From Micavibrio sp. (GTDB lineage Bacteria > Pseudomonadota > Alphaproteobacteria > Micavibrionales > UBA2020), in assembly GCA_028283745.1 (NCBI GenBank), contig JAPWJZ010000008.1, positions 435,290 to 499,289 of the forward strand: 64,000 bases of DNA. The letters run 5' to 3'. The notes under the pieces are model-generated. The model saw only the letters and a program-made list of their open reading frames with translations. It was not told the DNA's origin and did not search any database. Both the position numbers and the translations under genes were made by a program. The stretch's first letter is position 1; each line of letters starts with the position of its first letter. This document shows, piece by piece, positions 8,248-47,900 of this stretch.

Positions 8248-9422
8248 TGCTGCCGGAAATTATTTACGAAGGTTCTGTCAAAAACGTGCGCGGCGAAAAA
8301 GACAAAGCGCCCTACATTTTTGAATTCTCCGACCGCTATTCCATTTTCGACTGGGGCCAGATGCCCGATATGCTGACGGATAAAGGCGCATCGCTCGCCT
8401 TCATGGGCTGGTTCTTTTTCGATTACCTCGGCAAGCCCGAAACCTGGCAAAACTGGCAGGCGCCGGACAACGTGAAAAATGACGCCGCCCTCGTGCGCCT
8501 GCGCGCCAAGGGCCTGTCGCATCACGCGCTTGGCCTTGTCGACCATGACAGCAAGCAAATTCCGCTGGAGCGTGAATACATTTCCCCCACGCGCTGCCTT
8601 GCCGTGCAGCCGGTTACGGTCTTGAACCCCGAAAGCAGCGTCGTAGACGGCAAGCTGCTGTGGGATTACACGCCCTACAAGGCGCAGCCTGAAAACGCGC
8701 TGGTGCCGCTTGAAGTCATCTTCCGCTTCGGCGTGCCGGAAGGCTCGTCCCTTCTGCAGCGCACGGGGGATGCCGCTTATTGCAAGGCCATCGGCCTTGA
8801 TAAAGCGCCCAAAGCCGGCGACACGTTTACGGTGCCGGTTGTCGAATTTTCGACCAAGCTTGAAACGTCGGACCGTTACCTCAGCTACGCGGATGCGCAA
8901 GGCATCGCATCGCTGAACGATGATGAATTCACCGCGCTTCAGCAAATCTCCCGCCTTGTCTCCCTGCGCCTGAAAGACTGCTTTGCCGAAATCGGCATTG
9001 AGCTGTGGGATGGCAAGCTTGAATTTGCCTTTGGCAAACGCCAGGCCGACGGCATGCGCGACTTCATGCTGGTGGATTCCATCGGCCCCGATGAACTGCG
9101 CCTGATTAAGGATGGCCAGCACCTTTCCAAGGAAGCCCTGCGCGGCTTCTACCGTCCCACCAGCTGGTACGCCGCCATTGAAACCGGCAAGGCGCTGGCA
9201 AAAGAACGCGGCGAAAAAGACTGGAAGAAAATCTGCACCGATGAATTGAAGTCCGTGCCGCCGCTGCTGGCCCCTGCGGTGAAGCAGCGTGTCGAGATGA
9301 TTTATAAAGGCATTGCCACGGCGCTGTCTGAAAAGTTCTGCGGCGGCCGTGTCTTTGCGGATGCCTGGAGCCTTGATGATGTCGTCAAGCAGGTGCAGGC
9401 GAAAAAGCAGGAAGTCGCGTAA
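8247..9422 (+). CDS. purC: SAICAR synthetase (long form)
   Basis: IYEGSVKNV and FEFSDRYSIFDW motifs. The start overlaps the purE stop (TGATG). The track ORF 8157 is an upstream extension. Confidence 0.85.
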   Translation: MLPEIIYEGSVKNVRGEKDKAPYIFEFSDRYSIFDWGQMPDMLTDKGASLAFMGWFFFDYLGKPETWQNWQAPDNVKNDAALVRLRAKGLSHHALGLVDHDSKQIPLEREYISPTRCLAVQPVTVLNPESSVVDGKLLWDYTPYKAQPENALVPLEVIFRFGVPEGSSLLQRTGDAAYCKAIGLDKAPKAGDTFTVPVVEFSTKLETSDRYLSYADAQGIASLNDDEFTALQQISRLVSLRLKDCFAEIGIELWDGKLEFAFGKRQADGMRDFMLVDSIGPDELRLIKDGQHLSKEALRGFYRPTSWYAAIETGKALAKERGEKDWKKICTDELKSVPPLLAPAVKQRVEMIYKGIATALSEKFCGGRVFADAWSLDDVVKQVQAKKQEVA

Positions 9423-18639: not shown

Positions 18640-20160
18640 TTAATCTGCACGGTAGTTCGGCGCTTCTTTCGTAATCGTCACGTCATGCACGTGGCTTTCG
18701 CGGTAGCCCGCGCCCGTCATGCGGATGAACTGCGCCTTTTCCTTCATCTCCGGAATGGTTTTGGCGCCGGTGTAACCCATGGAAGCACGCAGGCCGCCGA
18801 CCATCTGGTGAATGACGTTGGCGATGGGGCCTTTGCTCGGCACGCGGCCTTCAACGCCTTCCGGCACCAGCTTTTGCGATTCCTTGACGCTGCCTTGCGA
18901 ATAGCGGTCGGCGGAACCGCGCACCATCGCGCCGACAGAACCCATGCCGCGGTATGATTTATAGGAGCGGCCCTGGTAAAGAATGACTTCACCGGGTGCT
19001 TCATCCGTGCCTGCGAAAATGCCGCCCATCATCACGCAATCCGCGCCCGCCGCAATCGCTTTGGCAAGGTCGCCGGATGATTTAATGCCGCCGTCCGCAA
19101 TCACCGGCACATCGTGGCGCATGGCGACGGTGGCAACATCCATGACGGCGGTCAGCTGCGGCACGCCCACACCCGCCACCACGCGCGTGGTGCAGATGGA
19201 CCCGGGGCCGATGCCGACTTTAAGCCCGTCAACGCCCGCGTCAATCAGCGCCTTTGCGGCATCGCCGGTTGCGATATTGCCGGCGATGATCTGCACGCGG
19301 TTGTTGTGGCGGCGCAGGCGCTTCACCATGTCGATCACGTGCTTGGAATGGCCGTGCGCGGTGTCGACGACGATAAGGTCGATATCCGCATCCATCAGCG
19401 CTTCGGCGCGGGCAAAGTTGCCGTCGCCCGTGCCAATGGCGGCGCCGGTGCGCAGGCGGCCTTCTTCGTCTTTCGCGGCGGTCGGGTGCAACTGCGCTTT
19501 TTCAATGTCTTTCACGGTGAAAAGGCCAATGCAGCGCTCGTCATTATCGACCACCAGCAGCTTTTCAATGCGGTGCTTGTGCAGCAGCTTCTTCGCCTTA
19601 TCTTTATCAACCGTGTTGTAAACCTTGACGAGATTTTCCGACGTCATCAGTTCGCGGATGGGCTGCTTTTTGTTGTCGGCAAAGCGCACGTCGCGGTTGG
19701 TGAGAATGCCGACAAGCTTGCCGTTCGCCTTCGTGACCGGCACGCCGGAAATGCGGTAACGCTGCATCAGCTCAAGCGCTTCGGCAAGCGGCGCATCCGG
19801 GTTGATGGTAATGGGGTTCAGCACCATGCCCGATTCATAACGCTTCACGCGGCGCACCTGTTCGGCCTGCGCCTCCGCATCCATGTTGCGGTGAATGATG
19901 CCCATGCCGCCCGCCTGCGCGAGCGCAATGGCGGCTTCCGCTTCCGTCACCGTATCCATCGCGGCGGAAAGGAGGGGGATGTTCAATGAAATCGTCTTGG
20001 TGATGCGGGTGGAGGTATCTGCCTCCAGCGGCTGAATTTCAGATGCGCCCGGCAGCAGCAGCACATCATCAAACGTCAACCCTTCCGTCTTGCGGATTTT
20101 GTCATGCAGGTTGATGGAAACGGCTTTTTTGCGGGGGGCGGTCTTTTTCATGGCAATCAT
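18640..20160 (-). CDS. guaB: IMP dehydrogenase
   Basis: [11 protein letters not shown] and CBS pair; catalytic Cys loop [11 protein letters not shown]. Confidence 0.95.
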
Positions 20161-20307
20161 CCTTGCGAACGGGCGTTAAACGCGACTCGTGATTGCAATT
20201 CTTTATATATGACGCAGTGCAAAAAGTCTAAATAAATCAAAGAATGGCTTTTATTAGAAGATTGCTCGCATAACATTTCGGACGAAATCTTCTTAAAGCG
20301 AGGGTGT

Positions 20308-21252
20308 TTAGTAATGGTAGACGTGGATGACTGTTTTAATATCGGGGGAAATCAGGATAATGCCGCCTAATCCATAGGCATAAAAACTTCCAGGGTGGGT
20401 TACAGCCTGTGTGAAAATTTTCTCTACGTTTTCGTCTACTTGGATCGAATATCCACCAAAATAACTATAAATATAACTTTCGGCAGGAACCTTGTTGGGG
20501 TTGGATACCTGCAGATCAAGCTTAGGGCCCTTTACGGATATCGGGGTTTCGTACCATGTTAAAGTACTCGAATACGTATTGTCGGCCCATTTTGTATTTT
20601 CGAGATATTCAGTTTTTTTGGCTCTTATTGCGGCAATTGTTCTTTCGGGGAGTGCATATAAAATCACACCGGATTCTGCGCCGGAAGGTTTAAATCCCCA
20701 TTCCATCGTATCTCTGTATGTAACTTTAGAAATATTAAGTTCTTTTGGCAATGCTGCTAAGAATTCCTTCGCCACGATATTGTCGTATGTTGCAAAAGAC
20801 ACAACTGTGCACAGAATTATGCTGCATACTAACTTCAAAGCCTGAATAACAATGTCGTAATCTTTTTTACTCCGATTGAGAAGCCAATCGACAGAATAAT
20901 AATAAAAAACTGCAGCAAACGTGACCGTTGAACAGATGAGCGCTGTGTCCAGCCTTAAACGCCATCTATTGAGCCAAAAGTCAATAATTGTTAGCAGCGC
21001 AACAATGCCCAAGCACCAACGCAGTGTAAATTTCTCGAGACTTCTTTTGATGAATTTCAGAATAACAAGCGCGCAAACCAAGAGAGTTGGTGCAGCGATT
21101 AGGACGAAAACGGAAGCTAATTCAAAATCCCCGATAGTGTCGTAAAACAAATTATAAACGAGAAGTCCAAACGTCACTCCCAACACACAGGTGACGACGA
21201 TGCAACCCGCGTGTTTAAGATAACTTGCTTGAGCTTCTTCTTTTACTCCCAC
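20308..21252 (-). CDS. hypothetical polytopic membrane protein, AT-rich (~40% GC) foreign-looking gene
   Basis: 314 aa with ~5 N-terminal TM helices and a ~145-aa C-terminal soluble domain. GTG start is embedded in the last codons of guaA. Composition contrasts sharply with the flanking ~60% GC. Confidence 0.5.
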
Positions 21253-22880
21253 TCAATCGTTCCGGGCGGTTTGGAGGTGATGTCGTAGACGACGCGGTTG
21301 ATGCCTTTGACCTCGTTGACGATGCGGACGGCGCAGCGGCCGAGGAAGTCATGGGGGAGTGGGGCGTAGTCGGCGGTCATGCCGTCGATGGAGGTGACGG
21401 CGCGCAGCGCCAGCACGTGGTCATAGGTGCGGCCGTCGCCCATCACGCCGACGGTGCGCACGGGCAGCAGCACGGCAAAGGCCTGCCAGGTTTCGGTGTA
21501 AAGCTTGTTGGCGTGCAGTTCCTCGATGAAAATCGCGTCTGCCTTGCGCAGAATGTTGAGGCGCTCTTCCGTGATTTCACCGGGAATGCGGATGGCAAGG
21601 CCGGGGCCGGGGAAGGGGTGGCGCATGACGAATTTTTCGGGGATGCCCAGCTCGACGCCCAGCGCCCGCACTTCATCCTTGAACAGGGCGCGAAGCGGCT
21701 CCACCAGCTTGAACTTCATGTCTTCCGGCAGGCCGCCGACGTTGTGGTGCGACTTGATGGTGACGGTGGGGCCGCCGGAGAAGGAAACGCTTTCGATTAC
21801 ATCGGGGTAGAGCGTGCCTTGCGCGAGGAAGGGGGCTTCGCCCGCGCGCTTTTTCGCATCCTCGAACACGTCGATGAAGGATTTGCCGATGATTTTGCGC
21901 TTTTGCTCCGGGTCCGTCACGCCTTTGAGGCGGGAGAGGAAAATTTCGCCGGACTGCTCATGCACCAGCGGAATATTGAAGTGGTTGCGGAACAGGCTGA
22001 CGACTTCTTCGGCTTCATTGAGGCGCATGAGGCCGGTATCGACAAAAATGCAGGTGAGCTGGTCGCCAATCGCGGCATGCAGCAGCGCGGCGACAACGGT
22101 TGAATCAACCCCGCCGGACACGCCGCAAATAACGCGTTCCTTGCCGACCTGTTTGCGGATGGCTTCGATCATCTCGTCTTTAAATGCCGCCATCGTCCAG
22201 TCGGGCTTGCAGCCGGCGATATTGAGGACGAAGTTGGAGATAATCTGCTTGCCTTCGGGCGTATGCACAACCTCGGGGTGGAACTGCACGCCGTAGAGCT
22301 TGCGTTTTTCATCTGCCACCGCGGCATAGGGGCAGGTGGCGCTTTTGCCGATGGTCGTGAAACCGTCGGGAATTTTGGAGACGCTGTCGCCGTGGCTCAT
22401 CCAGACCTGCGGCTGCGTGCCGTTCTGCCAGATGCCGTTGAAAAGCGGGTTCTTGAAATCTTCGACCGTCAGGTGCGCGCGCCCGAATTCGCGTTTCGCG
22501 GAAGGCGAGACTTTACCGCCCAGTTGCTCGCACATCGTTTGCAGGCCGTAGCAGATGCCGAAGACCGGCAGGCCGAGGGTAAAAATTTCCGCATGCGCGC
22601 GGGGGGAATTTGCCTCCGTCACCGAAGCGGGGCCGCCTGACAATATAATGGCCTTGGGGTTCAGCTTTAAAATTTCCGTCATTGGCGCATTAAAGGGTAG
22701 CAGCACCGAATAAACGCCAATCTCGCGGATGCGCCGGGCGATGAGCTGCGTTACCTGCGATCCGAAATCGAGGATAACGACGGTGTCGTGGGCTTTCTTC
22801 GTGGCGGTTTCGGCGGGGGCTGTTGCGGCTTGGGCGGTCATGGCGGGCTTTCGGTTAGGCGTTAAAAAGCGGCCTATCAT
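21243..22880 (-). CDS. guaA: GMP synthase (glutamine-hydrolysing)
   Basis: [17 protein letters not shown] GATase domain. ATP-PPase SGGVDS loop. C-terminal dimerisation domain ends with IEWE. Confidence 0.95.
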
Positions 22881-22949
22881 CCGAAACCGCGCGGCGTCGC
22901 GTCAATTGATTCGCATCTTATCCATAAAGCTGTATCTTTTGCAGTAATA

Positions 22950-24314
22950 TCAGAGCTTTTCCTTGCGGTGGTCAAGCAGCCGCAGCGCAAAAAACGCAAG
23001 GCCGGACAGGAGGATGATAAGGACGCCAACGCGCAGGGCGGAAGGCGCCTGCAATGCGCCGCCTTGCGTGAAGTCCACGGTATCCACAATCACCGATAGC
23101 GTGGAAATCAGCGTGAAGGCCAGCATGAAGACGCCAAGACGCTTGTTTTGCAGGTGGTTCAGGTTGTCGCGGATGCGGTTATAGATTTTCTCGACAAGGT
23201 CGAGCTTGGTGTTGAGGTTGTTGAAGCGGTCGCGCGTGTGCCAGGCTTTTTCAAGGGCGTGCCACACCTTCAGCCCCTGCGGGTCAAGGCTGTTGTCAAA
23301 ATCATCGTAGACGGATTTGAACAGCGTCACCTTCGATTGATATTCGACGATGACGCGCGACTGTCGCTCCAGCAGCGACATGTCGCTGGAGTGCTTATGG
23401 CGGTCAAGGTCGTTGCTGAGGTGGAAAAGGTCGCGGTCGATATCTTCCGCCGAGACATAGAAAATGTTCTGCGCGCGCACCATGCTGGGCAGCGTATTTG
23501 TATCTGAAACTTTCGCGCGGGATTTATCGTAGACGGCGACGGAATTGCCGTTGCCGGGGAACAGGGCGACGCCGGTGGCAATGGCGCTATCCTCAAGCAG
23601 TTCGGCCTGCTCGCTGTACACAAGGTAGCGGGCGCGGTCGCGCAGCATGCCAAAATCGGCTTCCGTATCGCAGGCGACGGTGAAAAGACGGTGGACCCAG
23701 AAAAGGTCGCCGAGCCCGTGCGCGAGGCAGCTGTTCGACCAATAGCCGGTATGGGGCTTGCTGCCCAGGAAGCTGGCGACGACATAGTCGGGCTTCAGCG
23801 CGGCGTGCACCTGCTCGAACGTTTCCATGTAAAGGCTGCGCCAGTCGGCAAGGGCGGAACCCGCGTTTTCGGCGGCGGTGCGGTATTCATCCAGCGTCAG
23901 GTCGCGAAGCGCCGTGATCTCGCCCTTGAAGGTCGCGGAGCCGTAGCCCATGTCGTACAGGCGAACGTCAATACTGGAAATGGTAAAGGCGCAGTCACCC
24001 GCAACCGTTACTTCCCCTTTAAGCGACAGGCGCTTTAGCGTTGCGGTTAAAAAATCCCCCGCCAGCTGGCGGCCGATGAAGTAGCCGGGAATGATGGTGC
24101 GCCCGCGCCGCGTGTCCACGTCGATCTGCATATGGTTGCCGCGCACGGCATAACCGGGGGCATACCATTCCGCGCCCATTTTCTCCGCAAGGTTATGTTG
24201 GTATTCGGCATAGCCCTGCGCCACCAGCGCCCGCGTATCGATAATAAGTCCCGACCGCATGGGGCCGTTATAGGCCATGTCGCAGCGCTGGTTTTTGGCA
24301 AGAAAAATGGTCAT
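22950..24314 (-). CDS. hypothetical protein with a cytoplasmic domain and two C-terminal TM helices (CorA-like topology, no GMN motif)
   Basis: 454 aa with no recognisable catalytic motif. C-terminus is FMLAFTLISTLSVIV...ALRVGVLIILLSGLAFFALRLL followed by a basic tail. Confidence 0.55.
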   Translation of the reverse strand: MTIFLAKNQRCDMAYNGPMRSGLIIDTRALVAQGYAEYQHNLAEKMGAEWYAPGYAVRGNHMQIDVDTRRGRTIIPGYFIGRQLAGDFLTATLKRLSLKGEVTVAGDCAFTISSIDVRLYDMGYGSATFKGEITALRDLTLDEYRTAAENAGSALADWRSLYMETFEQVHAALKPDYVVASFLGSKPHTGYWSNSCLAHGLGDLFWVHRLFTVACDTEADFGMLRDRARYLVYSEQAELLEDSAIATGVALFPGNGNSVAVYDKSRAKVSDTNTLPSMVRAQNIFYVSAEDIDRDLFHLSNDLDRHKHSSDMSLLERQSRVIVEYQSKVTLFKSVYDDFDNSLDPQGLKVWHALEKAWHTRDRFNNLNTKLDLVEKIYNRIRDNLNHLQNKRLGVFMLAFTLISTLSVIVDTVDFTQGGALQAPSALRVGVLIILLSGLAFFALRLLDHRKEKL

Positions 24315-24401
24315 GAATGCACCCGGCCTTATTCGGCTGTTGATGCACGATTTTATCGGGGCGCGGGGGAATTGTCAGTGGTTAATTGACGGCGGCGTTG
24401 C

Positions 24402-24575
24402 TTAATCGGCGCTTTTGAGTTTTTCGATAACGCCGCCAACGTCATCCAGCCCATGTTGCAGGCGCAGTATTTTCAGCTGCCGCGCTTCGACATCCGTCAG
24501 GGCGCGGGGGCCAATGGCCTTCAGGAAGGCGGCAATGGCGGCATTGGCATCTATATCCGGCTTTTTGTCGGTCAT
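24402..24575 (-). CDS. small ORF (57 aa) translationally coupled to the upstream 844-aa gene
   Basis: Its ATG overlaps the stop of the 844-aa gene (ATGA). Peptide is MTDKKPDIDANAAIAAFLKAIGPRALTDVEARQLKILRLQHGLDDVGGVIEKLKSAD. It falls below the ORF-track length cutoff. Confidence 0.35.
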   Translation of the reverse strand: MTDKKPDIDANAAIAAFLKAIGPRALTDVEARQLKILRLQHGLDDVGGVIEKLKSAD

Positions 24576-27106
24576 GCTTTCGGCTGCCTGTTCTTTTGCG
24601 CCGCGCCGGCCTTCAGCGTGTTCCAGGCGGGGCCATTATCGGGGCGGGTATCAAGCCTTAAGGGCTGCACTTCCGGCTGTTGCTGCACATAGGCGGCTAC
24701 CTGCAACAGGCTGCCACTACGGGTATATTCATCAAACTGCTGGGTGAACAGGCGCAGGGCGCGGCCTTCACGCTCCGCCCACAACGCGCGTTCGCCGTCA
24801 TTCGGTTGTGCGCTGTCGATGGCGGCAATATGGCGTGCGGCGTCTGCCGCGCCGGCCTTAAACTGCACCAGCGTGGACATTTCGGGCGGCATGCTGCTGT
24901 CTGGTGTTTCGGGCAGGCGGCTGTATATTGCCCACATGTCGCGGCGCGGGTTGGCGGGGCCTGCATGATCGGGGTGCTGGGCGGCAGCGTTGAATTCGGC
25001 GCTTAACGCGGGCTGGCGGCTTTCCATCACGGCGGCGACATAGCGCAGCACCATGGCTTCACGCCGCGCCATTTCAAGGCGGCCTTCGCACATCTGGCGC
25101 AAATCATCGACAAAAACGTGGCCTTTGACGTCGCCTGCGGGAATTTCACCCTGTACGGTTGCCACCTTCAGGCCATGCACCTGGCCTTTGATTGTCATGT
25201 CGCTGGCGGTCACGTCGCGGAATTTCGGGTCCTGGATATCGGCGAAGGTGATTATGTTTTCATCGCGCAGGTATTCGGCCATGCGGCGGTCAACGGGCAT
25301 GCCCTTGTCGGCCATGAAGGCGGCAATGCCGGTGTGGTTAAGCGCTTCGACGCGGGCGGCAATTTCCTCCTGCGCTTTCTTCAGGTGCTGGGCGCTGATG
25401 AATTTTGGCGCGCCTGCGGCATCCGTCACGCCGGGGCGGATGACGGCGGTAAAATTCGCGCCGCCGTCATGGGCTATAACCCACGGTTTCGGTTCGCTGT
25501 TTGGCAGGCCCGCGGCGGTGAAAGATTGGTCGATAATTTCGGTCATGTGGCGCAGCACAACGTCGCTGTAATGGTGGCCAAGGGTGTTGTTAAGGCCGGC
25601 GAGGTTGTGGAAGCTGACCGACATGGCAAAGGGCTTGCCAATATCCGCCCGCAGCATGCCCGCCTGCAGCAGCGCTTCGCGCACCACGGGGTCTTTACCG
25701 TTGAACTGCATGCGGTAGGCGGCGGTTTCGCGGGCATAAGCCTCGATCGTCGGGGCGATGACCTGCGGCATCATCGCCTGTGCGGAGGGATCGTGGGGGT
25801 TTAGGGCCGCCAGCGTTATATCCAGCATATGGCGCAGCGGCGGTGATAAATCCGGCCATTTTTTAAGCGCTGTCGCCATGCGGCGCTGCTGCAAGTCGGC
25901 CATCGGTTCGGGGGCGCTTTTGGCGGCATCATAGGCGGCCATGCCTTCCGGCGGGGGCGGCGCCTGCAATTTTCCGGGGGCGTAAAGTTCCAGCCGTTCA
26001 TTGGTATATTGCAAAAAGCCTTTGCTGCCGCCTTGCAGTGCGGGGTTGTATTGCGGGTTCATGGCGTGCAGCTTCTCGGCGGTTATTGCGGCGCCGGCGG
26101 TAAAGTACGCAATGCGCTGCTGCGTCAAGCCATCCAGCGTCTGGCCGGGGGCCAGCGGGTTTTCACCAAACAGCACTTGCGCGCGGGTTGATACTGCCAC
26201 CATTTCGGCGTCGATTTTGCCAAGGCGCAGCAGGCCCAGTTCCTGCTTGGCGTATTTAATGCGGCCGTCGAGTTCCTGAATGATGCTTTGCGGGTTTTTA
26301 AGGGTGCCAAGATCCTGAATGGCCAGCGCCGCGCCAAAACCGTTGCGGGCGGGGTTGGCGGGGTCCTTGGTGTGCGGGTGGTCCTGAAGCCCCATGGCGG
26401 CGATATGCTTTTCAATATCCGCATGCATGCGGTCCGCCAGAATGCGGATTTCGCGGGAATCTTCAAGGCCCGTCACCAGAATGCGCAGTTCATCCCCGCC
26501 GGTGCGGATGGGCAGGATTTGCGCATCAGCGGGCAGGTACTGCGCCATGGTATGCGTCATGGAAGCACAAAGCAGGCCCATGGCTATGTTGGTCATGGCT
26601 CGGTCTTCACGACCGGTAATCTCGCTTTCATCCACGCCGCGTTCGGCGGCCAGCATGCGGCGGAAATAATCGTTGGTGCCGCCCATGTTGGAAAAATCAA
26701 CTTCCACCATCGCAATCGGCTTGCCGGTTTCGGTGGCGTACAAATGCGCAAGGCCGGTTGCAGTATAGGCGTGTTCCTTGCTGAGGAAGCCGGTCACATG
26801 GTCGGGCGCGTTACGCGACAGGGCGGTGGCGTGCATAAAATCCAGCAGGTCCTGCGGTGCATGGGGCGCGTATTTTTCCAGCAGAATGCTTTGCGTTTCC
26901 GCGGGAGTTAAAAACCCGCGCTCCCGCCACAATTCGCGCACATCATCCATCACGGCATTGATGCTGTCGGGGAAGGCCTGCCAGCCGGCATCGGGCGCTG
27001 CGGCTATTTTACGTGCGCGGTCTTCGCCTGCCAGCACAAACTGCTGCAGGAAACGGGCGATTTCATCACCCTCGAAAATTTCAGCGAATGCGGTTTCTTG
27101 CGCCAC
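24572..27106 (-). CDS. large uncharacterised protein with two degenerate GGDEF/nucleotidyl-cyclase-like palm motifs
   Basis: 844 aa. Domain 1 has VDFSNMGGTNDYF...RTGGDELRILV. Domain 2 has SFHNLAGLNNTLGHHYSDVVLRHM...HDGGANF. Compare the GGDEF pattern DxxxFKxxNDxxGHxxGDxVL...RxGGDEF. Confidence 0.6.
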   Translation of the reverse strand: MAQETAFAEIFEGDEIARFLQQFVLAGEDRARKIAAAPDAGWQAFPDSINAVMDDVRELWRERGFLTPAETQSILLEKYAPHAPQDLLDFMHATALSRNAPDHVTGFLSKEHAYTATGLAHLYATETGKPIAMVEVDFSNMGGTNDYFRRMLAAERGVDESEITGREDRAMTNIAMGLLCASMTHTMAQYLPADAQILPIRTGGDELRILVTGLEDSREIRILADRMHADIEKHIAAMGLQDHPHTKDPANPARNGFGAALAIQDLGTLKNPQSIIQELDGRIKYAKQELGLLRLGKIDAEMVAVSTRAQVLFGENPLAPGQTLDGLTQQRIAYFTAGAAITAEKLHAMNPQYNPALQGGSKGFLQYTNERLELYAPGKLQAPPPPEGMAAYDAAKSAPEPMADLQQRRMATALKKWPDLSPPLRHMLDITLAALNPHDPSAQAMMPQVIAPTIEAYARETAAYRMQFNGKDPVVREALLQAGMLRADIGKPFAMSVSFHNLAGLNNTLGHHYSDVVLRHMTEIIDQSFTAAGLPNSEPKPWVIAHDGGANFTAVIRPGVTDAAGAPKFISAQHLKKAQEEIAARVEALNHTGIAAFMADKGMPVDRRMAEYLRDENIITFADIQDPKFRDVTASDMTIKGQVHGLKVATVQGEIPAGDVKGHVFVDDLRQMCEGRLEMARREAMVLRYVAAVMESRQPALSAEFNAAAQHPDHAGPANPRRDMWAIYSRLPETPDSSMPPEMSTLVQFKAGAADAARHIAAIDSAQPNDGERALWAEREGRALRLFTQQFDEYTRSGSLLQVAAYVQQQPEVQPLRLDTRPDNGPAWNTLKAGAAQKNRQPKA

Positions 27107-27208
27107 GATAGTTCAAACACCCCTTTGCCCCGCAAAAAAACAAGGCTTTGCGAAGTTGGCTTATTATACCGTGTGGGTATTATTATTTCCTTAATAATAT
27201 AAATATAT

Positions 27209-29611
27209 TTAAGGGGCTGAATTTGTTTGTTTATTTTTGTCGGAATAAATCAAGGCGCCGGGAATCTTCTTCAGCTTCGCTTCAAGCCCACGCACTGCGC
27301 CCACGTTGACCAGCACGTATTCAGCGGGGAAGTGCGTATCCTGTAAAAAGCTGCGCAGGTCTTTATCGCGCGTGGCCTGCCGCTGGAAGCTGCTGCGCCG
27401 CAGGCGGAACCCGACCTGGTAGGACGGGAATTCGCCCAGATACTTTACCCGCTTGCGGGCAAGGTAGACGGCGGAAATTATTCTGTGCCGCGCGGCCACC
27501 GCGGCAATGGCGGCTGGAATTTCGGCTGAAAGCCCGTGCGCTTCATAGGTATCGGTATCAAGAATTAAGTTGCGCTCCTCCTCCGCCGCCATGCGTGCAT
27601 ATTCCCACGCGCGAATTTTTTCGCGGTAAATGTCGGCGGCATCACGGCGCTGCACTTTTTCAAAGTAGTCGATGGCGTGGTGGCAGGCATTGGGCAAAAA
27701 CTGCGGGTGTTCCGCCGCCAGCTTCTCAAGCTCCTGCAACTGCGTTTCATCGTTTAATTGCGACAGGCGGATACCCATGATGTTCAGCCGCGCGCCGGGG
27801 CTGCCAGGATCGCGGCGCAAAATTTCCTCGCTCGCCTGTAGCACGCGGGAATCATCCTGCAACGTGCTGGCGGTGCCAATCAGCTCCCCCAGTTCCTCGC
27901 GGGTCATCATCTCCAGCGGTTTTTCGCTTAAAGCCGCATGGCGGCTGACGGCGGCGGTATGCTCCCCGTGGCGGGTGCGCCAGTGCGGCGCGGCATCTGC
28001 CTGCCATGCGGCGCTGAAACGGTCTGCCAGCTGCAGTTCAAGCGGCCCCAGCAATTCACGCGCGGCGCTGACTGTCATGGGCTGCGGCACGGTGAATTCC
28101 GCCTTCAGCGCATGAATGCGGTCCATGGTGGCGGGGTGGGTGCTGGCGTAATCGGTCGTGCGGTTTTGCACGGCGGCAATGGTTCTTTGCTGGTCGCGCG
28201 TGCCCGCAAAAAACGCGGGCATTAAATGAAAAGGTTTTATGGCGGCAACGTCGGGGTCTTGCTCGGCTTTCTTCCATAGGTCAAGCCAGAACAATTGCCC
28301 CAGCTCGGTGGACCGGATGGCGACGGCGGCCAGCGCCTCGGCATTGTGCTGGGCGCCCGCAAGTCTGGCCGAAAAAGCATCCGCCTCATATTCGCAGCGG
28401 CGCGACAGGGCAAAGCTATAGGCGCTGAACACGCCGATGAACCAGTCGTAAAAGCGGTTGAGCCGCAGGGCATACCACAGTTTTTCAAGGTGCAGCCGCC
28501 CGCCAAGGCTCAGCCAGCTATTGCGAATGCGGTAAACCCAGTGCCCCAGCGCGTTATCCTTCGCTGCCACATGACCGTATTCGTGCCCCACAACCGCGCC
28601 CAGTTGCGGCAGCGTCAAGGCCTGCATAAGGGGCAGCCCCAGCGTCAGCGTCACGGGGCCGAAGCCGAAGAAACCCAGCGCGCCCGTATTGCGCGCAACC
28701 GACGCGTTAAGGTCTGAGCTAATGTAAACATGCTTGAAGCGCGGGCCTTTGGCGGTCGCAATCATTTGTCCCAGCCACTTGAACAGTTCCGGCGCGGCGG
28801 CGGGGGTTATTTCAACGCCTTCCGGCGGGTGGGTTTGCAGCAGCAGGGATTTTGCAAGGTGAAAAGCAAAACCGATGGGCACCGCCGCCACAATAAACGC
28901 GAGCTTTGCCGCCGCCGCATTGCCCCCCGTCAGCACAACCACAACAGCCGCAAGGCCCAGGCCCAGCGGCAGCATTAAAAAAATACTGCCAAACACGACG
29001 ACATACCCCAGCAGCGCAAGGCGAATGGTTTTTTGCCGCAGCCATGCGGGGTTGTGCTGCGCCTTCGCCTCGATCACCTTCACAAGCTCGGCAAAGGCAT
29101 CATCGCGGCGTTTGCGTTCTTCCGGCGTCATAATCGTAATGTCATCCGCCATCAGCCAGAACAAGAACAGCACGGGCATGACCAGCACCAGCAGCGCCGC
29201 CATAATGAACATGCCGTTAAAACGTAGTGCCCCAATGCTGTATTGCAGCCCTGCGTCATGCTCAAGGTCCCAGCGCGTCACATAGGGGCGGTCTTTGATT
29301 TGCGTTTCATAGACGGGGCCAAGCTTGATGTGGTGGCTCATGTGACCGCCGCCATACAGCCACTCGATAAAGTCGGCGCGGATGATGAACAGCACGCCGG
29401 TTTTATCCGGCAATTCGCGTGCGCCTGCAATGCGCATGTCGGGCGCAAGGCCGTGCATGGTAAAGCGCATATCCAGCTTGTGCCATTCAAACGGCCCTTG
29501 CAGCTTTTCAGCCGCGGGCAAGGGCGGCGACAGGCTGGTATTGCCGGTCATAAACAAAATGCACGGCAGCCACAAAACCAGAAACAGCAGGCAGAAAAAA
29601 ATACGCGACAT
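27209..29611 (-). CDS. M48-family zinc metallopeptidase, membrane-bound, with large N- and C-terminal extensions
   Basis: HEXXH motif VGHEYGHV with several TM helices; 800 aa. Confidence 0.75.
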   Translation of the reverse strand: MSRIFFCLLFLVLWLPCILFMTGNTSLSPPLPAAEKLQGPFEWHKLDMRFTMHGLAPDMRIAGARELPDKTGVLFIIRADFIEWLYGGGHMSHHIKLGPVYETQIKDRPYVTRWDLEHDAGLQYSIGALRFNGMFIMAALLVLVMPVLFLFWLMADDITIMTPEERKRRDDAFAELVKVIEAKAQHNPAWLRQKTIRLALLGYVVVFGSIFLMLPLGLGLAAVVVVLTGGNAAAAKLAFIVAAVPIGFAFHLAKSLLLQTHPPEGVEITPAAAPELFKWLGQMIATAKGPRFKHVYISSDLNASVARNTGALGFFGFGPVTLTLGLPLMQALTLPQLGAVVGHEYGHVAAKDNALGHWVYRIRNSWLSLGGRLHLEKLWYALRLNRFYDWFIGVFSAYSFALSRRCEYEADAFSARLAGAQHNAEALAAVAIRSTELGQLFWLDLWKKAEQDPDVAAIKPFHLMPAFFAGTRDQQRTIAAVQNRTTDYASTHPATMDRIHALKAEFTVPQPMTVSAARELLGPLELQLADRFSAAWQADAAPHWRTRHGEHTAAVSRHAALSEKPLEMMTREELGELIGTASTLQDDSRVLQASEEILRRDPGSPGARLNIMGIRLSQLNDETQLQELEKLAAEHPQFLPNACHHAIDYFEKVQRRDAADIYREKIRAWEYARMAAEEERNLILDTDTYEAHGLSAEIPAAIAAVAARHRIISAVYLARKRVKYLGEFPSYQVGFRLRRSSFQRQATRDKDLRSFLQDTHFPAEYVLVNVGAVRGLEAKLKKIPGALIYSDKNKQTNSAP

Positions 29612-29677
29612 AGAAATACTCCAGCTTCCATCCTAGCCGCCGGATGGTGAATAAAAGCTGAACGGTTTTATGTCCAG

Positions 29678-30754
29678 TTAGCCGAACCGGCGTGGCTTTG
29701 GCGCGGCAACGGGGGCAGCGTGGTTAGCCGGCTGGTTGATCAACGGGTGGGCGGCCGGCGGCGCAAGGCGCGCACGCACCTGCGCCAGCAGGTCTGCCTT
29801 GTCCATTTCGCCATAGCGCAAATGCCATGGTTTGCCTTGGCCTTCGCCGGCGCGTTCCTGATACAGCAGGCCAATTTTATCGCCGCGGTCGATGGTATCG
29901 GGGTGGCCGTTTTCACCTGTGCCTTCGGGGTATACGGTCGGGTCAACCGGCGTGCCCATGGGCTTGAAGGGGCCGCCGGGGCTGCTGCCCGCAGCAAAGA
30001 AAACCCGCTGGCGCGTGCCACGGGCTGATGTGTCTTTATCAAGGAAGCAGACGCCGACCATTAAAAAAGCATCTTCCGCCAGCTGAATAACTTTCGCGCC
30101 CTCAAGCCCCCATTCGTAATGGGGGCTGCCGGGGCGGTTGTGGAAGGGAACATCCTCCTGCCGCAGGGCCAGGCGCGGTTGTTGCCATTCAACCGTGCCT
30201 TTTTCGCGCAGGCTGGTAAAAACATCGCCGCAGCCAACGAAAGGATTGGTAATGCCAATGTCGCGGTAGCCTGAAAATGTCATGCATTCAAAGCTTTTGC
30301 CGCCCAGGGTCATGTCGGATATTGCAACGTCGTAGAGCGTAATCACGGGCTCCGCTATATCTGCCCTGGTCAGCGCAGGCGCTGCGTCCCCCGTGAAATG
30401 GATGCCATCGTCGGACGTTGCAACGGCAATCATGCCATCCGCGCCAAAGCAGCTGGTCTGGATGTACATTTTATAAACCGCCTTGCCGTTCTCCACTGTG
30501 CGGATGACGGCGGGGGCGACAACTTCAGGCCCGTCGATGCCGGTGATGGTGACGGGCCCCAGCTCCTGCCACGGGCCTTCCGGCGTATCGGCATAAAAGC
30601 GGCCGACCACCCACGGCAGGTCACGCGAAATGCCGTTGCTGGCATAAAGGTAATAGCCGCCCTCCGGCGCTTCCACCACGCTGGGGTCCTTGATTTCAAA
30701 ATACTCATCCGCACTGGCATGACGGCGGCAAAATTCAACGCGTTCAGATTTCAT
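29678..30754 (-). CDS. beta-propeller glycoside-hydrolase-like protein (GH43/GH130-like fold, tentative)
   Basis: EYFEIKDPSVV and YYLYAS-type beta-propeller sequence features; 358 aa. Confidence 0.4.
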   Translation of the reverse strand: MKSERVEFCRRHASADEYFEIKDPSVVEAPEGGYYLYASNGISRDLPWVVGRFYADTPEGPWQELGPVTITGIDGPEVVAPAVIRTVENGKAVYKMYIQTSCFGADGMIAVATSDDGIHFTGDAAPALTRADIAEPVITLYDVAISDMTLGGKSFECMTFSGYRDIGITNPFVGCGDVFTSLREKGTVEWQQPRLALRQEDVPFHNRPGSPHYEWGLEGAKVIQLAEDAFLMVGVCFLDKDTSARGTRQRVFFAAGSSPGGPFKPMGTPVDPTVYPEGTGENGHPDTIDRGDKIGLLYQERAGEGQGKPWHLRYGEMDKADLLAQVRARLAPPAAHPLINQPANHAAPVAAPKPRRFG

Positions 30755-30988
30755 GAGACGTCCGGCTTATGACTGTTTATTTCTGGCTGTTTTAGGGGAT
30801 GCCGCGATTAAGCCCCAAAACTTTCAGCATGACAACCCGGCAAATGGCGCAACAAAATACGCGGATTATGCTTAAGCAAGGCTGTGGATTTTCAGAATGT
30901 CTAAACAACTGTTTGTTAACCGCTTTTGTCTACAGTCATATCATCCGTCCTCAATCCGGCAGGCGGTTTTTAAAGGCAGGTATTTTAT

Positions 30989-33013
30989 ATGGACACGATT
31001 TTATCGGCGCATTTTATCATCGGCCTTCTGTGCGTTGTGACGCTGCTGGTCGTGCTTGGCAAATTCCTCGTCAACGTCGGCTCGAAGGAGCTGGCAGTCA
31101 TGGAGCGGCAGTTTTTCGGCAAGCCTTTGCACCCCGGCAACGTTTTCGCGCTGCAGGGCGAAGTGGGGCTGAAGGCGCAATACCTGTCACCCGGCCTGCA
31201 TTTCGTCGTCTGGCCTATCATGCGCGTTGTCATGAAGCCGCAGTTCCTGACCATCGCGGCAGATGAACTTGGCATTGTCGAGGCGACGGACGGCGCGGCG
31301 CTGTCCTCCGGCCGTATTTTCGCGGATGACCCTGCCGGTGAAAGCCACAACAACTTTCAAGACCCCGTGCAGTTCCTGCGCAACGGCGGCATTCGCGGCA
31401 AGCAGCTGCGGTTCCTCACCAACGGGACGTTCAAAATTCACCCGTACCTTTTCAAGGTCACGAAAATCAAGAAAACCTTTATTCCCGAAGGCAGCATCGG
31501 CGTTGTCACGGCATCCGACGGCGCGACGCTGCAGGGGTTGCTCGCCAAAAGCGTCGGCGGGCATGACAACTTCCAGAAAGCTGAAACTTTCCTCAAGAAC
31601 GGCGGCCAGAAAGGCCCGCAGATCGACTTCCTGCGCCCCGGCAGCTACAACATCAATACTGAAATTTTCAAGGTCGAAGTGCGCGAAGCCGTGAAAATTG
31701 CCGAAAATGAAATCGGCGTCGTTGAAGCCCGCGACGGCGTGACGATGGAAAGCCGCGATGTTGTGGTGCCCACGCCCGAACATCACAACAACTTCCAGAA
31801 CGGCCAGGAGTTTCTTGATAACGGCGGCAAGCGCGGCCCGCAGGAAAGCATTCTGACCCCTGGCACTTATTACATCAATCCCTACCTGTTCTCGGTCTCG
31901 CGCCGCAAACAAATCATCATCAACCAGGGTGAAGTGGGGGTGTTGATTTCGAACATCGGGCAGGATCCGTCCGAATTCAAGGCGGATGCAACGGCCGAAG
32001 ATGCCTCCGACAATGAAGGCCGCATGCGCCACGTGGTGCCGAAAGGTTTCCGCGGCATTCAGCGCGAGGTTTTGGGCCCAGGCGCCTACAACATCAACCC
32101 GCTTGCGTATATCGTCATTGTCATCCCCACCGTCACGCGGTCGGTTGAATGGAGCGCGGAAGTCGCCAAGAACGGTTCCGCCAATTTCGACCCGTTCCAG
32201 GTCGTTTCGCACGACGGCTTCCCGATGCAGGTGGAAGTGCGCTGCCAATACCGCATTTTGCCGGAAAATGCGCCATATGTGGTGCAAAAAATCGGCTCCG
32301 TCGCGCAGCTGGAAAGCAACGTCATTCACCCGCAGATTGACGGTATCTTCAGGGCGCAGGTGGCGCGCTCCCCCGCCATCGCCTATCAGCAGAACCGCGC
32401 GGAAGAACAGAAAATGGCGGAAGAGGCCGTGCGCAGCGACCTGACCAAATACAGGGTCGACGTTGTTTCGGTCATGGTGACAAACATTCACCTGCCCGAA
32501 GCCCTGATGAAAACGACGCAGCAAAAAAACCTCGCCGAGCAGGAAAAGTCGATGTACGACGCCAAGCAGCAGGCTGAACAACGCCGCATCGAGTTCGAAA
32601 AAACCAAGACGGAAGCCGACGCGCAGGTGAAAATCATTACCGCCGAAGCCGGCATCAAGGTCGCGCAATACGAAGCCAAGCAGACGGAAGAACGCGCAAG
32701 GGGCGATGCCGCCCGCGTGCGCATGCTCGGCGAAGCGGATGCGTCCAAAACCCAGATGGTGGGGGACGCCGAAGCCAGCATCATTCAGGCAAAGGGTGAA
32801 GCGCAGGCCAAGGCGTATCGCGACCAGGTGGATGCGCTGACGGCGCAGGGCGTGACAACGGTGGAAGTAATGAAGGCCATTTCCGCCGCCGGCCTTAAAA
32901 TTACGCCGGATATTCAGGTTAATGGCAACGGCAGCGGCGCTGCCGGCAACGACAGCGGCGGGCTCGTTCAAGTCCTGCTCGGCCGCATGTTGCAGCAGGG
33001 CAAGGTCGCGTAA
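30989..33013 (+). CDS. flotillin-like SPFH-family membrane protein
   Basis: N-terminal TM helix. Three internal ~65-aa repeats (HNNFQ..FL.NGG.RG.Q). C-terminal Ala/Glu-rich coiled coil typical of the flotillin/YqiK family. Confidence 0.65.
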   Translation: MDTILSAHFIIGLLCVVTLLVVLGKFLVNVGSKELAVMERQFFGKPLHPGNVFALQGEVGLKAQYLSPGLHFVVWPIMRVVMKPQFLTIAADELGIVEATDGAALSSGRIFADDPAGESHNNFQDPVQFLRNGGIRGKQLRFLTNGTFKIHPYLFKVTKIKKTFIPEGSIGVVTASDGATLQGLLAKSVGGHDNFQKAETFLKNGGQKGPQIDFLRPGSYNINTEIFKVEVREAVKIAENEIGVVEARDGVTMESRDVVVPTPEHHNNFQNGQEFLDNGGKRGPQESILTPGTYYINPYLFSVSRRKQIIINQGEVGVLISNIGQDPSEFKADATAEDASDNEGRMRHVVPKGFRGIQREVLGPGAYNINPLAYIVIVIPTVTRSVEWSAEVAKNGSANFDPFQVVSHDGFPMQVEVRCQYRILPENAPYVVQKIGSVAQLESNVIHPQIDGIFRAQVARSPAIAYQQNRAEEQKMAEEAVRSDLTKYRVDVVSVMVTNIHLPEALMKTTQQKNLAEQEKSMYDAKQQAEQRRIEFEKTKTEADAQVKIITAEAGIKVAQYEAKQTEERARGDAARVRMLGEADASKTQMVGDAEASIIQAKGEAQAKAYRDQVDALTAQGVTTVEVMKAISAAGLKITPDIQVNGNGSGAAGNDSGGLVQVLLGRMLQQGKVA

Positions 33014-44959: not shown

Positions 44960-47900
44960 ATGCCCGTCGTCAATAATACATTCGTTGGTACCTCTGGTGA
45001 CGATACATTTGATGCGGGCACAAACGTAGATACTGTGCTTGGCGCCGAGGGCAACGACGTTCTGTCGGGCCGTGATGGCGGCAACAATTATTACTTTGAT
45101 GGCGGCACCGGTGCCGACCAGATGACAGGCAACGCAGGTGATGACACATATTTTGTCGATAACCTTGGCGACCAGGTCAACGAAGGAAACTACAGCAGCA
45201 ACGATACGGTTATTTCAACCATTTCATATACCCTTCTCGCCAATCTTGAATCGCTGATTCTTACGACGGGCGATACTTTTGGCAAGGGCAACACGCTCGA
45301 CAACACGCTTACCGGCAGTTCGGGCAATAACACGCTAGACGGCCTTGCCGGCGCGGATACGATGAGCGGCGGCACGGGTAACGATACTTATTATATCGAT
45401 AACCTCGGCGATACCATTATTGAAACGCCGCCCCCTGCGCCCGGCACGCCGAACACGGAAATTGACACGGCGTTTTCGACCATCAACTTCGACATCAGCG
45501 GCGTCAACGGTCTTGAAAACCTGACATTGCTGGGGAGTGCCATTACGGCTATCGGCAATAACGGTGATAACGTATTGACCGGTAACGCGGGTGCAAACTA
45601 CCTGGATGGCGGCAACGGTGATGATACGTTGGACGGCGGCACCGGCGCAGATACAATGCTTGGCGGCAGCGGCAACAATACCTTCGTCGTCGACAATACG
45701 GGTGATCAGGTTAATAATACCGGCGGTGGTATCGATTCCGTCGTCCAGTCTTACATCAGCTTCAACCTGTCGACTGACCTTGCCGCAGGTGTAGTCCAAA
45801 CACTGCAGCTTTTGGGTACTACGAATATCAACGGTACGGGGACCGCGTTCGCCGACGTCCTTATCGGTAACTCCGGCAAGAACACGCTAACTGGCGGCGA
45901 CGGAAATGACATCATTTCCAGCAACGGCGGTGGCGATCTCATGATCGGCGGCAACGGCGACGACCGGTATTACGTGTCCGCGACCAATGATATCGTGAGC
46001 GAGGGATCCGGCGTGCTTGCGGGCCTGCACGACATCGTCGTTTCATCCGCGACCTATACCTTAAGCGCGAACGTTGAAGACTTGCAGCTGACGGGCACCG
46101 GCAATATCAACGGTACCGGTAACGCCCTGAATAACATCCTGGTCGGCAACAGCGGCGACAACACGCTGGATGGCAAGGCCGGTGACGACAGCATGGCCGG
46201 CGGCGACGGCAACGATACCTATTACGTCGATTCCGTGAATGACTTCGTTGATGAGGTCGAGCTGCAGGGCACGCAGGATCTCGTCATCTCTTCCGTCAGC
46301 TACACGCTTTCCTCCACGCTTGAAAACCTGACGCTGTCCGGTACGGCGAGCCTCAACGGCACTGGCAACCAGTTTGCCAACATCATCACCGGTAACTCTG
46401 GCGTCAACATCCTCGACGGCCGCGAGGGCGCGGATACCATGATCGGCGGCGGCGGCGGCGACACCTATATGGTCGACAACACGCAGGACGTTATCACCGA
46501 AGCCGCAGGCGGCGGCACGGACATCGTGCTGTCGACTGTCAGCTACACACTTTCCGCTAACGTCGAAAACCTGACGTTGTTCGAGGCGGCAGACCCGGCC
46601 GACAGTTTTGACCTTAACGGTACTGGCAACGCGCTGGCTAATACCATCATTGGCAATAGCGGCGACAACACGCTTGATGGTGGCGGTGGCGCCGACAAAC
46701 TTATCGGCGGCGCAGGCGACGATACTTATATCGTTGATAGCTCAAGCGCTGTCATCGTCGAAGCCGCAGGCGCGGCTGCGGGCAATGATACTGTCATTTC
46801 CTCTGTCAGTTATACTTTATCCGCCAACCTTGAGAACCTGACGCTGTCAGGCACGGCTATTTCCGGCACGGGTAACGCGGATAACAACATTATTACCGGC
46901 AACGCCGCCAATAACACGCTACTCGGCAACGACGGCGACGATACAATCGACGGCGGCGCGGGCAGCGACCGCATGTCCGGCGGCAACGGCGACGACACGT
47001 TCTATGTTGACGCTACTGGCGATATAGTCATTGAAGCGGCGGGTGCCGGCAACGATGTGGTTTACTCCGCCGCCGTAACGTACACCATTGGCACGAACGT
47101 CGAAACGCTGACGCTTATCGGCGCCGCTGTCACGGGCATCGGCAACGCGGCCGACAACGTTATCAACGGCAACCTTTTCGACAACACGCTCGACGGCAAA
47201 GCTGGCGACGATACGATGGCGGGCGGCGCGGGCGATGATACTTATTTCATAGACAGTATCGGTGACCTTGTCATTGAAGGCTTGGGTGCGGGCAGCGATA
47301 CGGTCGTGACGGGCATTGAAAACTATGCAATCGGCACGAACATCGAAAACCTTGTGCTGGCAAACGGCATTTTGAGTGGCAGCGGCAACACGCTTGATAA
47401 CCTTCTGACAGGCAATGCGGGCATCAACACTCTTTCAGGCCTTGATGGCAACGACACGCTGGACGGCGGCATCGGCGCAGATACGCTGATCGGCGGCGAC
47501 GGTAACGATACGTTCTATGTCGACAATGCGCTGGACACGATTATCGAGACAGCGGGTGGCGCATCCGGTACGGCTGATACGGTTATCGCCGGCGTCAGCT
47601 ACAGCCTGCTCGCGCATGCAGACAACGTTGAAAATATCATTCTTGCCGCGGGCAAGGGCAACCTCGGCGCGATCGGTAATGCGCTTGACAACGTACTCAC
47701 CGGCAACGAAGGCAATAATACGCTGGACGGCGGCGCGGGTGACGATACGCTGATCGGTGGCCTTGGCAACGATACGTATTTCGTGGATTCAGCTTCCGAT
47801 CTTATCGTCGAAAATGGCGGCGAAGGCACGGATGTGGTGCACGCGACGGCCAGCTACGTATTGGGCGACAACATTGAGAATATCATTGTCGACGGTACGG

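Follow-up and report, generated by a model that had tools for sequence, protein, structure and literature searches.

Few bacterial signalling proteins have been studied as much as the GGDEF enzymes. To our knowledge, nearly all of these act as homodimers, in which the catalytic domains are identical and fused sensor domains exert control. The DNA examined here, a stretch of 64,000 nucleotides (nt) from a Micavibrio sp. genome (contig JAPWJZ010000008.1; hereafter the window), carries on its minus strand three consecutive genes that are annotated as hypothetical proteins of a metagenome-assembled genome (MAG). They encode a protein of 844 amino acids (aa) with two GGDEF-type palms (large; PW788_12160), its 57-aa partner (small; PW788_12155) and a 454-aa membrane protein (mem454; PW788_12150). 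Large and small together are referred to as the pair. We hold it moderately probable that the interval contains two units, namely a self-contained pair (about 24402..27196) that would make a nucleotide signal, and mem454 with a promoter of its own.

Several described systems come close. SiaC is a protein of about 126 aa that stands under a kinase/phosphatase pair. It is the small binding partner by which the P. aeruginosa diguanylate cyclase SiaD is activated (SiaD-SiaC, 7e6g; PMC8457831). In the diguanylate cyclase PleD, the active residues are D327, K332, N335, D344, E/D370, K442 and R446 (PMC6629876). In type III CRISPR systems, Cas10 makes SAM-AMP (an adduct of S-adenosylmethionine and AMP), which activates a CorA effector (PMC10600005).

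When compared with the GGDEF diguanylate cyclases (PleD 1w25, WspR 3bre/3i5c, the T. maritima enzyme 4urq/4urs and DgcB 6ttr), large differs in having two palms per chain, the second of which is catalytically dead. It has motifs of its own (SNMGGTN, an insert of about 20 aa replacing GH, and HPHxK...NGFG), is devoid of REC, PAS and GAF sensor domains, of an RxxD I-site and of an equivalent of K332, has a dedicated microprotein partner and scores below the Pfam threshold. FimX (3hva), LapD (3pjx) and PA0861 (5xgb) resemble its second palm, since they too combine the GGDEF fold and the loss of the catalytic acids with retained nucleotide-contacting positions and high conservation. However, their degenerate GGDEF domain has an EAL domain as its companion, whereas the companion of palm 2 is an intact GGDEF-type palm. 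The mammalian adenylyl cyclase C1/C2 domains (1cs4, 6r3q) and Cas10/Cmr2 (4h4k, 4w8y) share the pseudo-heterodimeric design but belong to different palm sub-families; in addition, large has neither the HD nuclease domain nor the Cas partners of Cas10/Cmr2. The resemblance is one of architecture and not of membership. Compared with SiaC, the partner found here is a 57-aa helical microprotein for which no relatives were detected, and SiaA/B genes are absent. As in the Cas10-SAM-AMP-CorA pathway, a two-palm signal generator is encoded beside a CorA-family membrane protein other than a classical Mg2+ channel. In contrast to that pathway, the linkage between cyclase and CorA-like protein is not conserved, mem454 has its own promoter, and no NrN or SAM-lyase gene was found among the flanking genes examined.

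The features on which the argument rests are the following.

24572..27106, (-): large, 844 aa, GTG start, tandem GGDEF-type palm protein.
24402..24575, (-): small, 57 aa, its ATG overlapping the TGA of large.
22950..24314, (-): mem454, 454 aa, CorA-superfamily membrane protein, a neighbour belonging to a separate unit in the favoured reading.
26222..26725, (-): palm 1 of large, aa 128-295, predicted to be catalytically competent, with the motifs EVDFSNMGGTN (D137, N145), RTGGDEL (aa 201-207, 26486..26506) and HPHTK (K247).
25142..25639, (-): palm 2 of large, aa 490-655, a degenerate copy.
27163..27196, (-): footprint upstream of large, consisting of TATTAAGGAAATA (27184..27196), a 15-nt gap and TATAAT (27163..27168).
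24350..24378, (-): promoter-like site before mem454, consisting of CTGACA, 17 nt and TAAAAT, in an 87-bp spacer.
23073..23135, (-): first transmembrane helix (TM1) of mem454, followed by the FTQG loop (23061..23072) and the second helix (TM2, 22968..23033).

The three minus-strand open reading frames (ORFs) of 844, 57 and 454 aa are all present in the ORF list, as an earlier note, made from the letters of this DNA alone, had described. The stop of large and the start of small do share an ATGA (AAAGCATGACC), GGDEL of the RTGGDEL motif translates at 26486..26500 and HDGGANF at 25451..25471, and the AT-rich leader at 27107..27208 has a G+C content (GC) of 0.34 and a perfect TATAAT on the minus strand. 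The note had further proposed that large holds two cyclase-type palms, one intact and one degenerate, that the 57-aa ORF is a genuine partner tightly coupled to large, that the leader is promoter-like and that mem454 has a CorA-type topology with two C-terminal TM helices and no GMN motif; each of these proposals is borne out by the results given below. The three genes are annotated and all have conserved homologues. Against the closest relative, the homologous locus L031, the ratio of nonsynonymous to synonymous substitution rates (dN/dS) is 0.14 for large, 0.14 for mem454 and 0.64 for small over the whole ORF. On that footing they are more than chance ORFs.

Homologous loci were fetched from other genomes (designated L with a number; family-member proteins or clusters are designated P), and the family was surveyed by searching 1.84 billion representative proteins exhaustively with HMMER (E <= 1e-3) and by scanning 185,579 species genomes. 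Using a hidden Markov model (HMM) on the six-frame ORFs of all fetched loci, we found a homologue of small directly 3' of large in 15 of them, which makes at least 16 loci with the window, and in several genomic contexts. In one further locus its position is cut by a contig end, and six more distant loci carry divergent ORFs of 58-88 aa there. Small ORFs just downstream of large in five other loci align with the 57-aa ORF of the window. The family has a well-conserved core, FLxxIGPRxLTxEEARxLxxLRLxxG, flanked by variable ends, and the spacing between large and small runs from a 4-nt overlap, which is frequent, to about +85 nt. A profile search with small returned 39 clusters, all of them stand-alone proteins of 44-118 aa on contigs that match in length those carrying large; no Pfam, NCBIfam or PADLOC match was obtained for small. 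Judged by this conservation, small is a real gene and an obligate partner of large. The two are kept together at tight spacing in contexts as different as the guaA locus, a flagellar locus, an integrase island and a ribosomal-protein locus.

The association with mem454 is of another kind. The context genes of the window are as follows.

27209..29611, (-): M48 peptidase with HEYGH.
29678..30754, (-): 358-aa ORF with a weak GH43 match, a beta-propeller.
21243..22880, (-): guaA.
18640..20160, (-): guaB.

The gene orders observed around mem454 were as follows.

Window and L009: propeller, M48, large, small, mem454, guaA.
L031 and L001: M48, large, small, mem454, guaA.
L002: propeller, ArsB-like, large, small, mem454, guaA.
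L032: propeller, ArsB-like, mem454, guaA, with the pair absent; the start of mem454 overlaps the stop of the ArsB-like gene (1337 aa, ArsB/CitMHS-like; position 7001).
L007: propeller, M48, mem454, with the pair absent; M48 and mem454 overlap by 4 nt (9001-9004).
L008 and L033: mem454 beside guaA without the pair; L008 reads propeller, mem454.

In all, mem454 adjoins the pair in six loci only (window, L001, L002, L009, L022 and L031), all of which are syntenic, and about 20 other loci hold the pair without it. In these, the pair is found after fliS, by an integrase/P4-like island, near ribosomal-protein genes or, in a second clade, before a protein of about 120-133 aa. In GCA_046314385.1, which contains both, the pair (L015) and mem454 (L008) lie on different contigs. 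On a neighbour-joining tree of mem454, L032, which is without the pair, is sister to L002 and L022, which have it, and L007, again without the pair, is sister to L001, which has it. Since pairless loci are nested in this way among pair-bearing ones, the pair has undergone no fewer than two losses or gains here, with mem454 remaining in place. Where both genes occur, large gives a neighbour-joining tree congruent with that of mem454. The adjacency of cyclase and CorA-like protein carries little functional weight, because it coincides with a wider synteny (SPFH ... guaA, guaB). A GH43-like propeller, usually upstream, M48 or an ArsB-like gene, and mem454 look like a separate conserved cluster of membrane proteins.

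The view of the earlier note that the three genes form one conserved functional unit did not survive this comparison: the three are not conserved as neighbours beyond the shared synteny, mem454 occurs without the pair in L007, L008, L032 and L033 and has its own promoter footprint, and the pair occurs without mem454 elsewhere. As to its suggestion that M48 and the beta-propeller may belong to the same unit, both are associated with mem454 and not with the pair (L007, L008, L032). Its defence reading found no backing. A PADLOC scan of seven locus proteins gave no match at E <= 1, tblastn found no copy of the large family in plasmid and phage collections, no CRISPR array was found, no cas genes were present among the seven flanking proteins scanned, and the locus is syntenic core genome. 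Neither the protein models nor the island or mobile context of known nucleotide-signal defence systems (CBASS, Pycsar, type III CRISPR, Thoeris etc.) were recovered. By these comparisons, the locus does not appear to be a defence system, and a link from cyclase to CorA effector is not supported.

The upstream regions give the same division. In 11 aligned upstream regions of large (L005, L009-L011, L013-L015, L017-L019 and L031), which come from the window's clade and from the second clade at other genomic sites, TATTAAG(G/A)AAA and TATAAT are invariant and at fixed spacing, and the motif occurs nowhere else in the 64-kb window. As both clades keep the motif unchanged, also at sites with other neighbouring genes, the pair would have its own regulatory region and travel with it; mem454 would have a separate one. 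The site in the spacer before mem454 is the best minus-strand sigma-70-like match in an 11-kb scan (10/12 positions), and its -35 and -10 elements are kept at the same spacing in L031, L009, L002 and L022; in L001 the -10 only is kept. The promoter-like element in the AT-rich leader is therefore not merely present but phylogenetically conserved. The TATTAAG(G/A)AAA box is unlike a standard -35 hexamer at 17-bp spacing, and it may be an activator site or a site for an alternative sigma factor. A CtrA box (TTAA-N7-TTAAC) was also considered for the upstream motif; by eye, a single half-site matched, and this assignment is not claimed.

Large consists of an N-terminal helical domain, palm 1, a helical linker, palm 2 and a variable, helical or disordered C-terminus. 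Its AlphaFold2 model, built from an alignment of 43 homologues with 30-86% identity (A2), has a predicted local distance difference test score (pLDDT) of 89.5 and a predicted template modelling score (pTM) of 0.85, the latter indicating that the modelled protein is one rigid multi-domain body. The core order of a GGDEF-type palm, beta-alpha-alpha-beta-beta-alpha-beta-alpha, is predicted twice, at aa 131-294 and aa 493-697. Searched against the sequences of the PDB, the whole-protein profile A2 gave nothing significant. We then relied on a palm-only profile (A5), a joint MAFFT alignment of both halves of large with both palms of a distant member, P0227, in which two intact copies occur (LDVVNLNGLN...RHGGDEF...HRKHPG...NG, twice). 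With E 8.7e-8, this profile finds diguanylate cyclases of solved structure; (D/S)xxxxxxxN..GH...D and GGDEF fall on VDLAGFKAINDTYGHLSGD and GGDEF of 4urq, and D137, N145 and GGDEL of palm 1 on D327, N335 and GGEEF of the solved enzymes. Thus, by fold and by profile homology, large is a member of the GGDEF superfamily, and the profile and structure check proposed for it in the earlier note returned a cyclase-type fold.

In palm 1, D137, N145, R201, G203, G204, D205, E206 and K247 are invariant in 43/43 sequences of A2, so that the metal Asp and the acidic pair of GG(D/E)EF are present throughout. By reading of the C-terminal helix, the counterparts of PleD K442 and R446 are K287 and R294, which are invariant as well. 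An RxxD I-site five residues upstream of the GGDEF motif is missing, GGDEL being preceded by PADAQILPIRT (DAQILPIRTGGDEL).

In palm 2, S498 replaces the metal Asp and HDGGANF replaces GGDEF. The metal-ligand positions are therefore occupied by S498 and G/A550-N551, and both the metal Asp and the acidic pair are gone. The palm has invariant residues of its own in the family alignment (S498, N506, G510, H511, D515, H546, K628 and R630), which argue that it is not decaying; it is probably a conserved, non-catalytic, nucleotide-binding domain. In A5, the two palms share columns at Asn (N145/N506), Gly-Gly (G203-G204/G548-G549), Lys (K247/K628) and Gly (G256/G645). When palm 1 and palm 2 sub-alignments were compared directly with hhalign, the match was not significant; the duplication is supported by the joint MAFFT alignment with the P0227 copies and by the predicted secondary structure. 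Since P0227 carries two intact copies, the tandem arrangement appears to be ancestral.

For mem454, only two hydrophobic segments were found (aa 392-415 and 425-449). The AlphaFold2 model (pLDDT 81.7) begins with an alpha/beta domain and continues with long helices and with one of about 57 residues that leads into TM1, followed by TM2. This corresponds to the CorA fold, in which a stalk helix connects a cytoplasmic alpha/beta domain to two TM helices at the C-terminus. In the members of the MIT superfamily (CorA, CmaX, ZntB and MRS2), too, an N-terminal alpha/beta domain is followed by a long stalk helix that continues into TM1; TM1 and TM2 are joined by a short loop in the periplasm, and the C-terminus is basic. 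In a Foldseek search of the PDB, the top 43 matches were all CorA, CmaX or MRS2 (E ~3e-4, with a TM-score of only 0.2-0.3). The Pfam CorA family (PF01544) scored 14.1 bits, below its threshold of 27. After TM1, the loop reads DFTQGG in place of GMN, GVN or GIN, and F415, T416 and Q417 are invariant in 36 homologues, which form a narrower clade with a mean column identity of 66%. We take mem454 to be a divergent CorA-superfamily member that fails the Mg2+-channel signature.

The family of large is rare, with 214 clusters among the representative proteins searched, and the genome scan found 22 loci, all in Micavibrio-type MAGs; labels such as Bdellovibrionales or Pseudobdellovibrionaceae reflect the NCBI placement of Micavibrio. 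The literature on tandem GGDEF proteins and on Micavibrio GGDEF yielded no description of the large/small family. Two clusters (P0109 and P0113) have an additional HD-type domain of about 330 aa with the class-I phosphodiesterase (PDE) signature HDLDHxGxxN. This PDE-like domain is N-terminal to the palm core in P0109, and also in L020 (4876-9477) and L021 (4870-9549), and C-terminal in P0113; the fused members are 1533-1699 aa long. Because the domain is fused on either side of the same core, the arrangement implies, by Rosetta-stone reasoning, that the product of large would be a phosphodiester signal that acts within the cell producing it and can be hydrolysed.

Other observations were made on members of the family. 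In L021, and probably in L020, a gene of about 870 aa that looks by eye like a P-type ATPase follows the small ORF. The 120-133-aa protein of the second clade is conserved within a few nt of the small ORF (L005 10481-10846, L011 8484-8843, L014 7641-8042, L015 8419-8820); it has an N-terminal segment resembling a signal peptide and no family match. GCA_039808765.1 holds two paralogous pairs (L003 and L004), one adjoining a phage-integrase/P4 cII-like island and the other lying between fliS, which it follows directly, and the gene of a PAS hybrid histidine kinase. In L027, the place of the microprotein is taken by a 285-aa ORF (7876-8733), whose start is 1 nt from the stop of the distant large homologue upstream and which looks by eye like a PP2C-type phosphatase (NEDA...VIDGATG). 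A distant relative from Legionella anisa (P0221, 878 aa) combines leucine-rich repeats with GGDEF-like palms, an architecture that would be typical of Legionella effectors.

Several observations weigh against the two-unit reading or against the enzymatic role assigned to the pair. In the window's clade, the pair and mem454 stay adjacent through about 40-60% protein divergence, and they may be linked in function, in trans or in cis. For small, the dN/dS against L031 is as high as 0.64 over the whole ORF. The GGDEF profile PF00990 reaches 23.2 bits on large, against a cut-off of 23.8, and covers only aa 494-530; TIGR00254 scores 22 against a threshold of 37.4, and other NCBIfam matches are weak. 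Palm 1 has Gly at the position of PleD K332. The equivalent of D344 is Asn in the window protein and Asp in 39/43 sequences, the alignment across the palm 1 insert being uncertain. Together, these two positions make guanine specificity uncertain. Finally, the Pfam match of the PDE-like domain is at threshold and spans only the first ~51 profile positions. Given the sub-threshold Pfam score, the missing I-site and K332 equivalent, the altered base-specifying position and the tandem of one active and one dead palm, large is, as far as its sequence tells, not a canonical diguanylate cyclase.

We propose that palm 1 would bind a nucleoside triphosphate (NTP) and Mg2+ and form a phosphodiester bond. 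Palm 2 would take the place, within the same chain, of the second protomer in the usual GGDEF dimer and could hold an acceptor or allosteric nucleotide through its retained Asn, His, Asp and Lys/Arg pair. A single catalytic half-site of this type would lead to a dinucleotide-type second messenger. Pairing of two chains through palm 1 could yield a cyclic dinucleotide, and a chain acting alone could yield a linear pppNpN. Small, translationally coupled to large, would be its 1:1 regulatory subunit, following a logic comparable to that of SiaC-SiaD. In this scheme, mem454 would remain part of its lineage-conserved neighbourhood of beta-propeller, M48 or ArsB-like gene, mem454 and guaA.

Other explanations were weighed against this one. 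The nucleotide made by large might gate a mem454 channel, the three genes forming one signal module for defence or signalling by analogy with type III CRISPR. The genes are indeed adjacent and co-oriented in the six syntenic loci, the trees of large and mem454 are congruent where both occur, the CorA-superfamily fold with a non-GMN loop is what would be expected of a repurposed channel, and a two-palm cyclase that signals to a CorA effector has a precedent (PMC10600005). However, four loci hold mem454 without the pair, and in two of these (L007, L032) its start overlaps the stop of the M48 or ArsB-like gene instead; about 20 loci hold the pair without mem454, and the two lie on different contigs in GCA_046314385.1. 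The adjacency is accounted for by wider synteny, mem454 has its own conserved promoter footprint, and neither PADLOC match nor cas gene (seven flanking proteins), CRISPR array nor mobile-element copy was found, so that we regard such a module as improbable. It is slightly less improbable that large is an effector delivered into prey (into the host, for Legionella), where it would make or deplete nucleotides, and that small is an immunity protein or chaperone keeping it inactive or export-competent. The confinement of the family essentially to Micavibrio-type obligate predators (all 22 loci), the leucine-rich-repeat fusion in Legionella anisa, the variable and partly disordered C-termini, the genome in which one of two paralogous pairs adjoins an integrase/P4-like island, and the tight coupling of a small downstream partner, as often seen for immunity genes, would all fit. 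On the other hand, large has no signal peptide and no adjacent secretion-system genes, its conserved enzymatic core is N-terminal and central and not a polymorphic C-terminal toxin domain, the PDE-like fusion suggests make-and-break signalling in cis and not a toxin, and the promoter is conserved in a core-genome context with no plasmid or phage copies.

The pair might also be a non-enzymatic receptor or scaffold, in which both palms bind nucleotides such as cyclic di-GMP without catalysis and small is the output partner. A weak NCBIfam LapD match over palm 2 and the conservation of this palm in spite of its missing catalytic residues are in its favour. Nevertheless, we judge it the most doubtful of the alternatives: none of the 43 sequences, whose identity goes down to 30%, departs from the acidic metal ligands and GGDE of palm 1, a pattern typical of active enzymes, and no RxxD I-site lies upstream of GGDEL. 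The two-unit reading can also be extended, with as small a chance of being right in full as we give to the effector explanation. The pair would then be an undescribed single-chain asymmetric GGDEF enzyme that makes a non-canonical signal (a linear pppNpN or a mixed-base dinucleotide), is switched by its microprotein and controls a step of epibiotic predation, the adjacent mem454 being one receptor in the window's clade.

Some features of the surroundings were recorded in passing. The region of the pair was considered as a recent horizontal insertion; this was rejected, because no flanking direct or inverted repeats bound 24315..27208 and the GC is like that of the surroundings. The slot between guaA and guaB is hypervariable (window, L031, L002, L032, L008, L033). 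In the window it is occupied by the following gene.

20308..21252, (-): AT-rich 314-aa ORF, GC 0.41.

This ORF is a multi-TM protein without family match and overlaps the stop (3' end) of guaA by 10 nt; in the relatives, the slot holds unrelated genes (a methyltransferase, pairs of ORFs of about 200 aa, or several tiny ORFs). Further away, a 1865-aa ORF of the window (44960..50557, (+)) contains several short arrays that repeat every 27 nt (9 aa), abound in codons for Gly, Asn and Asp and are reminiscent of RTX-type repeats. Scanned against Rfam at E <= 1, the region 20000..31200 gave neither a riboswitch nor a member of any other RNA family.

These results correct the model of a cyclase acting on a CorA effector, in that the adjacency of the two genes reflects lineage synteny together with repeated gain or loss of the pair. 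What sets the large/small family apart is the combination of an intact and a dead palm in one rigid chain, a microprotein and a promoter motif of its own, and an occasional fusion to a eukaryote-like HD phosphodiesterase. Micavibrio-type hosts are poorly understood obligate bacterial predators, of interest as living antibiotics. If our reading is true, the pair would stand for a separate design and mode of control of a nucleotide-signal synthase in these bacteria, and its product might be new.

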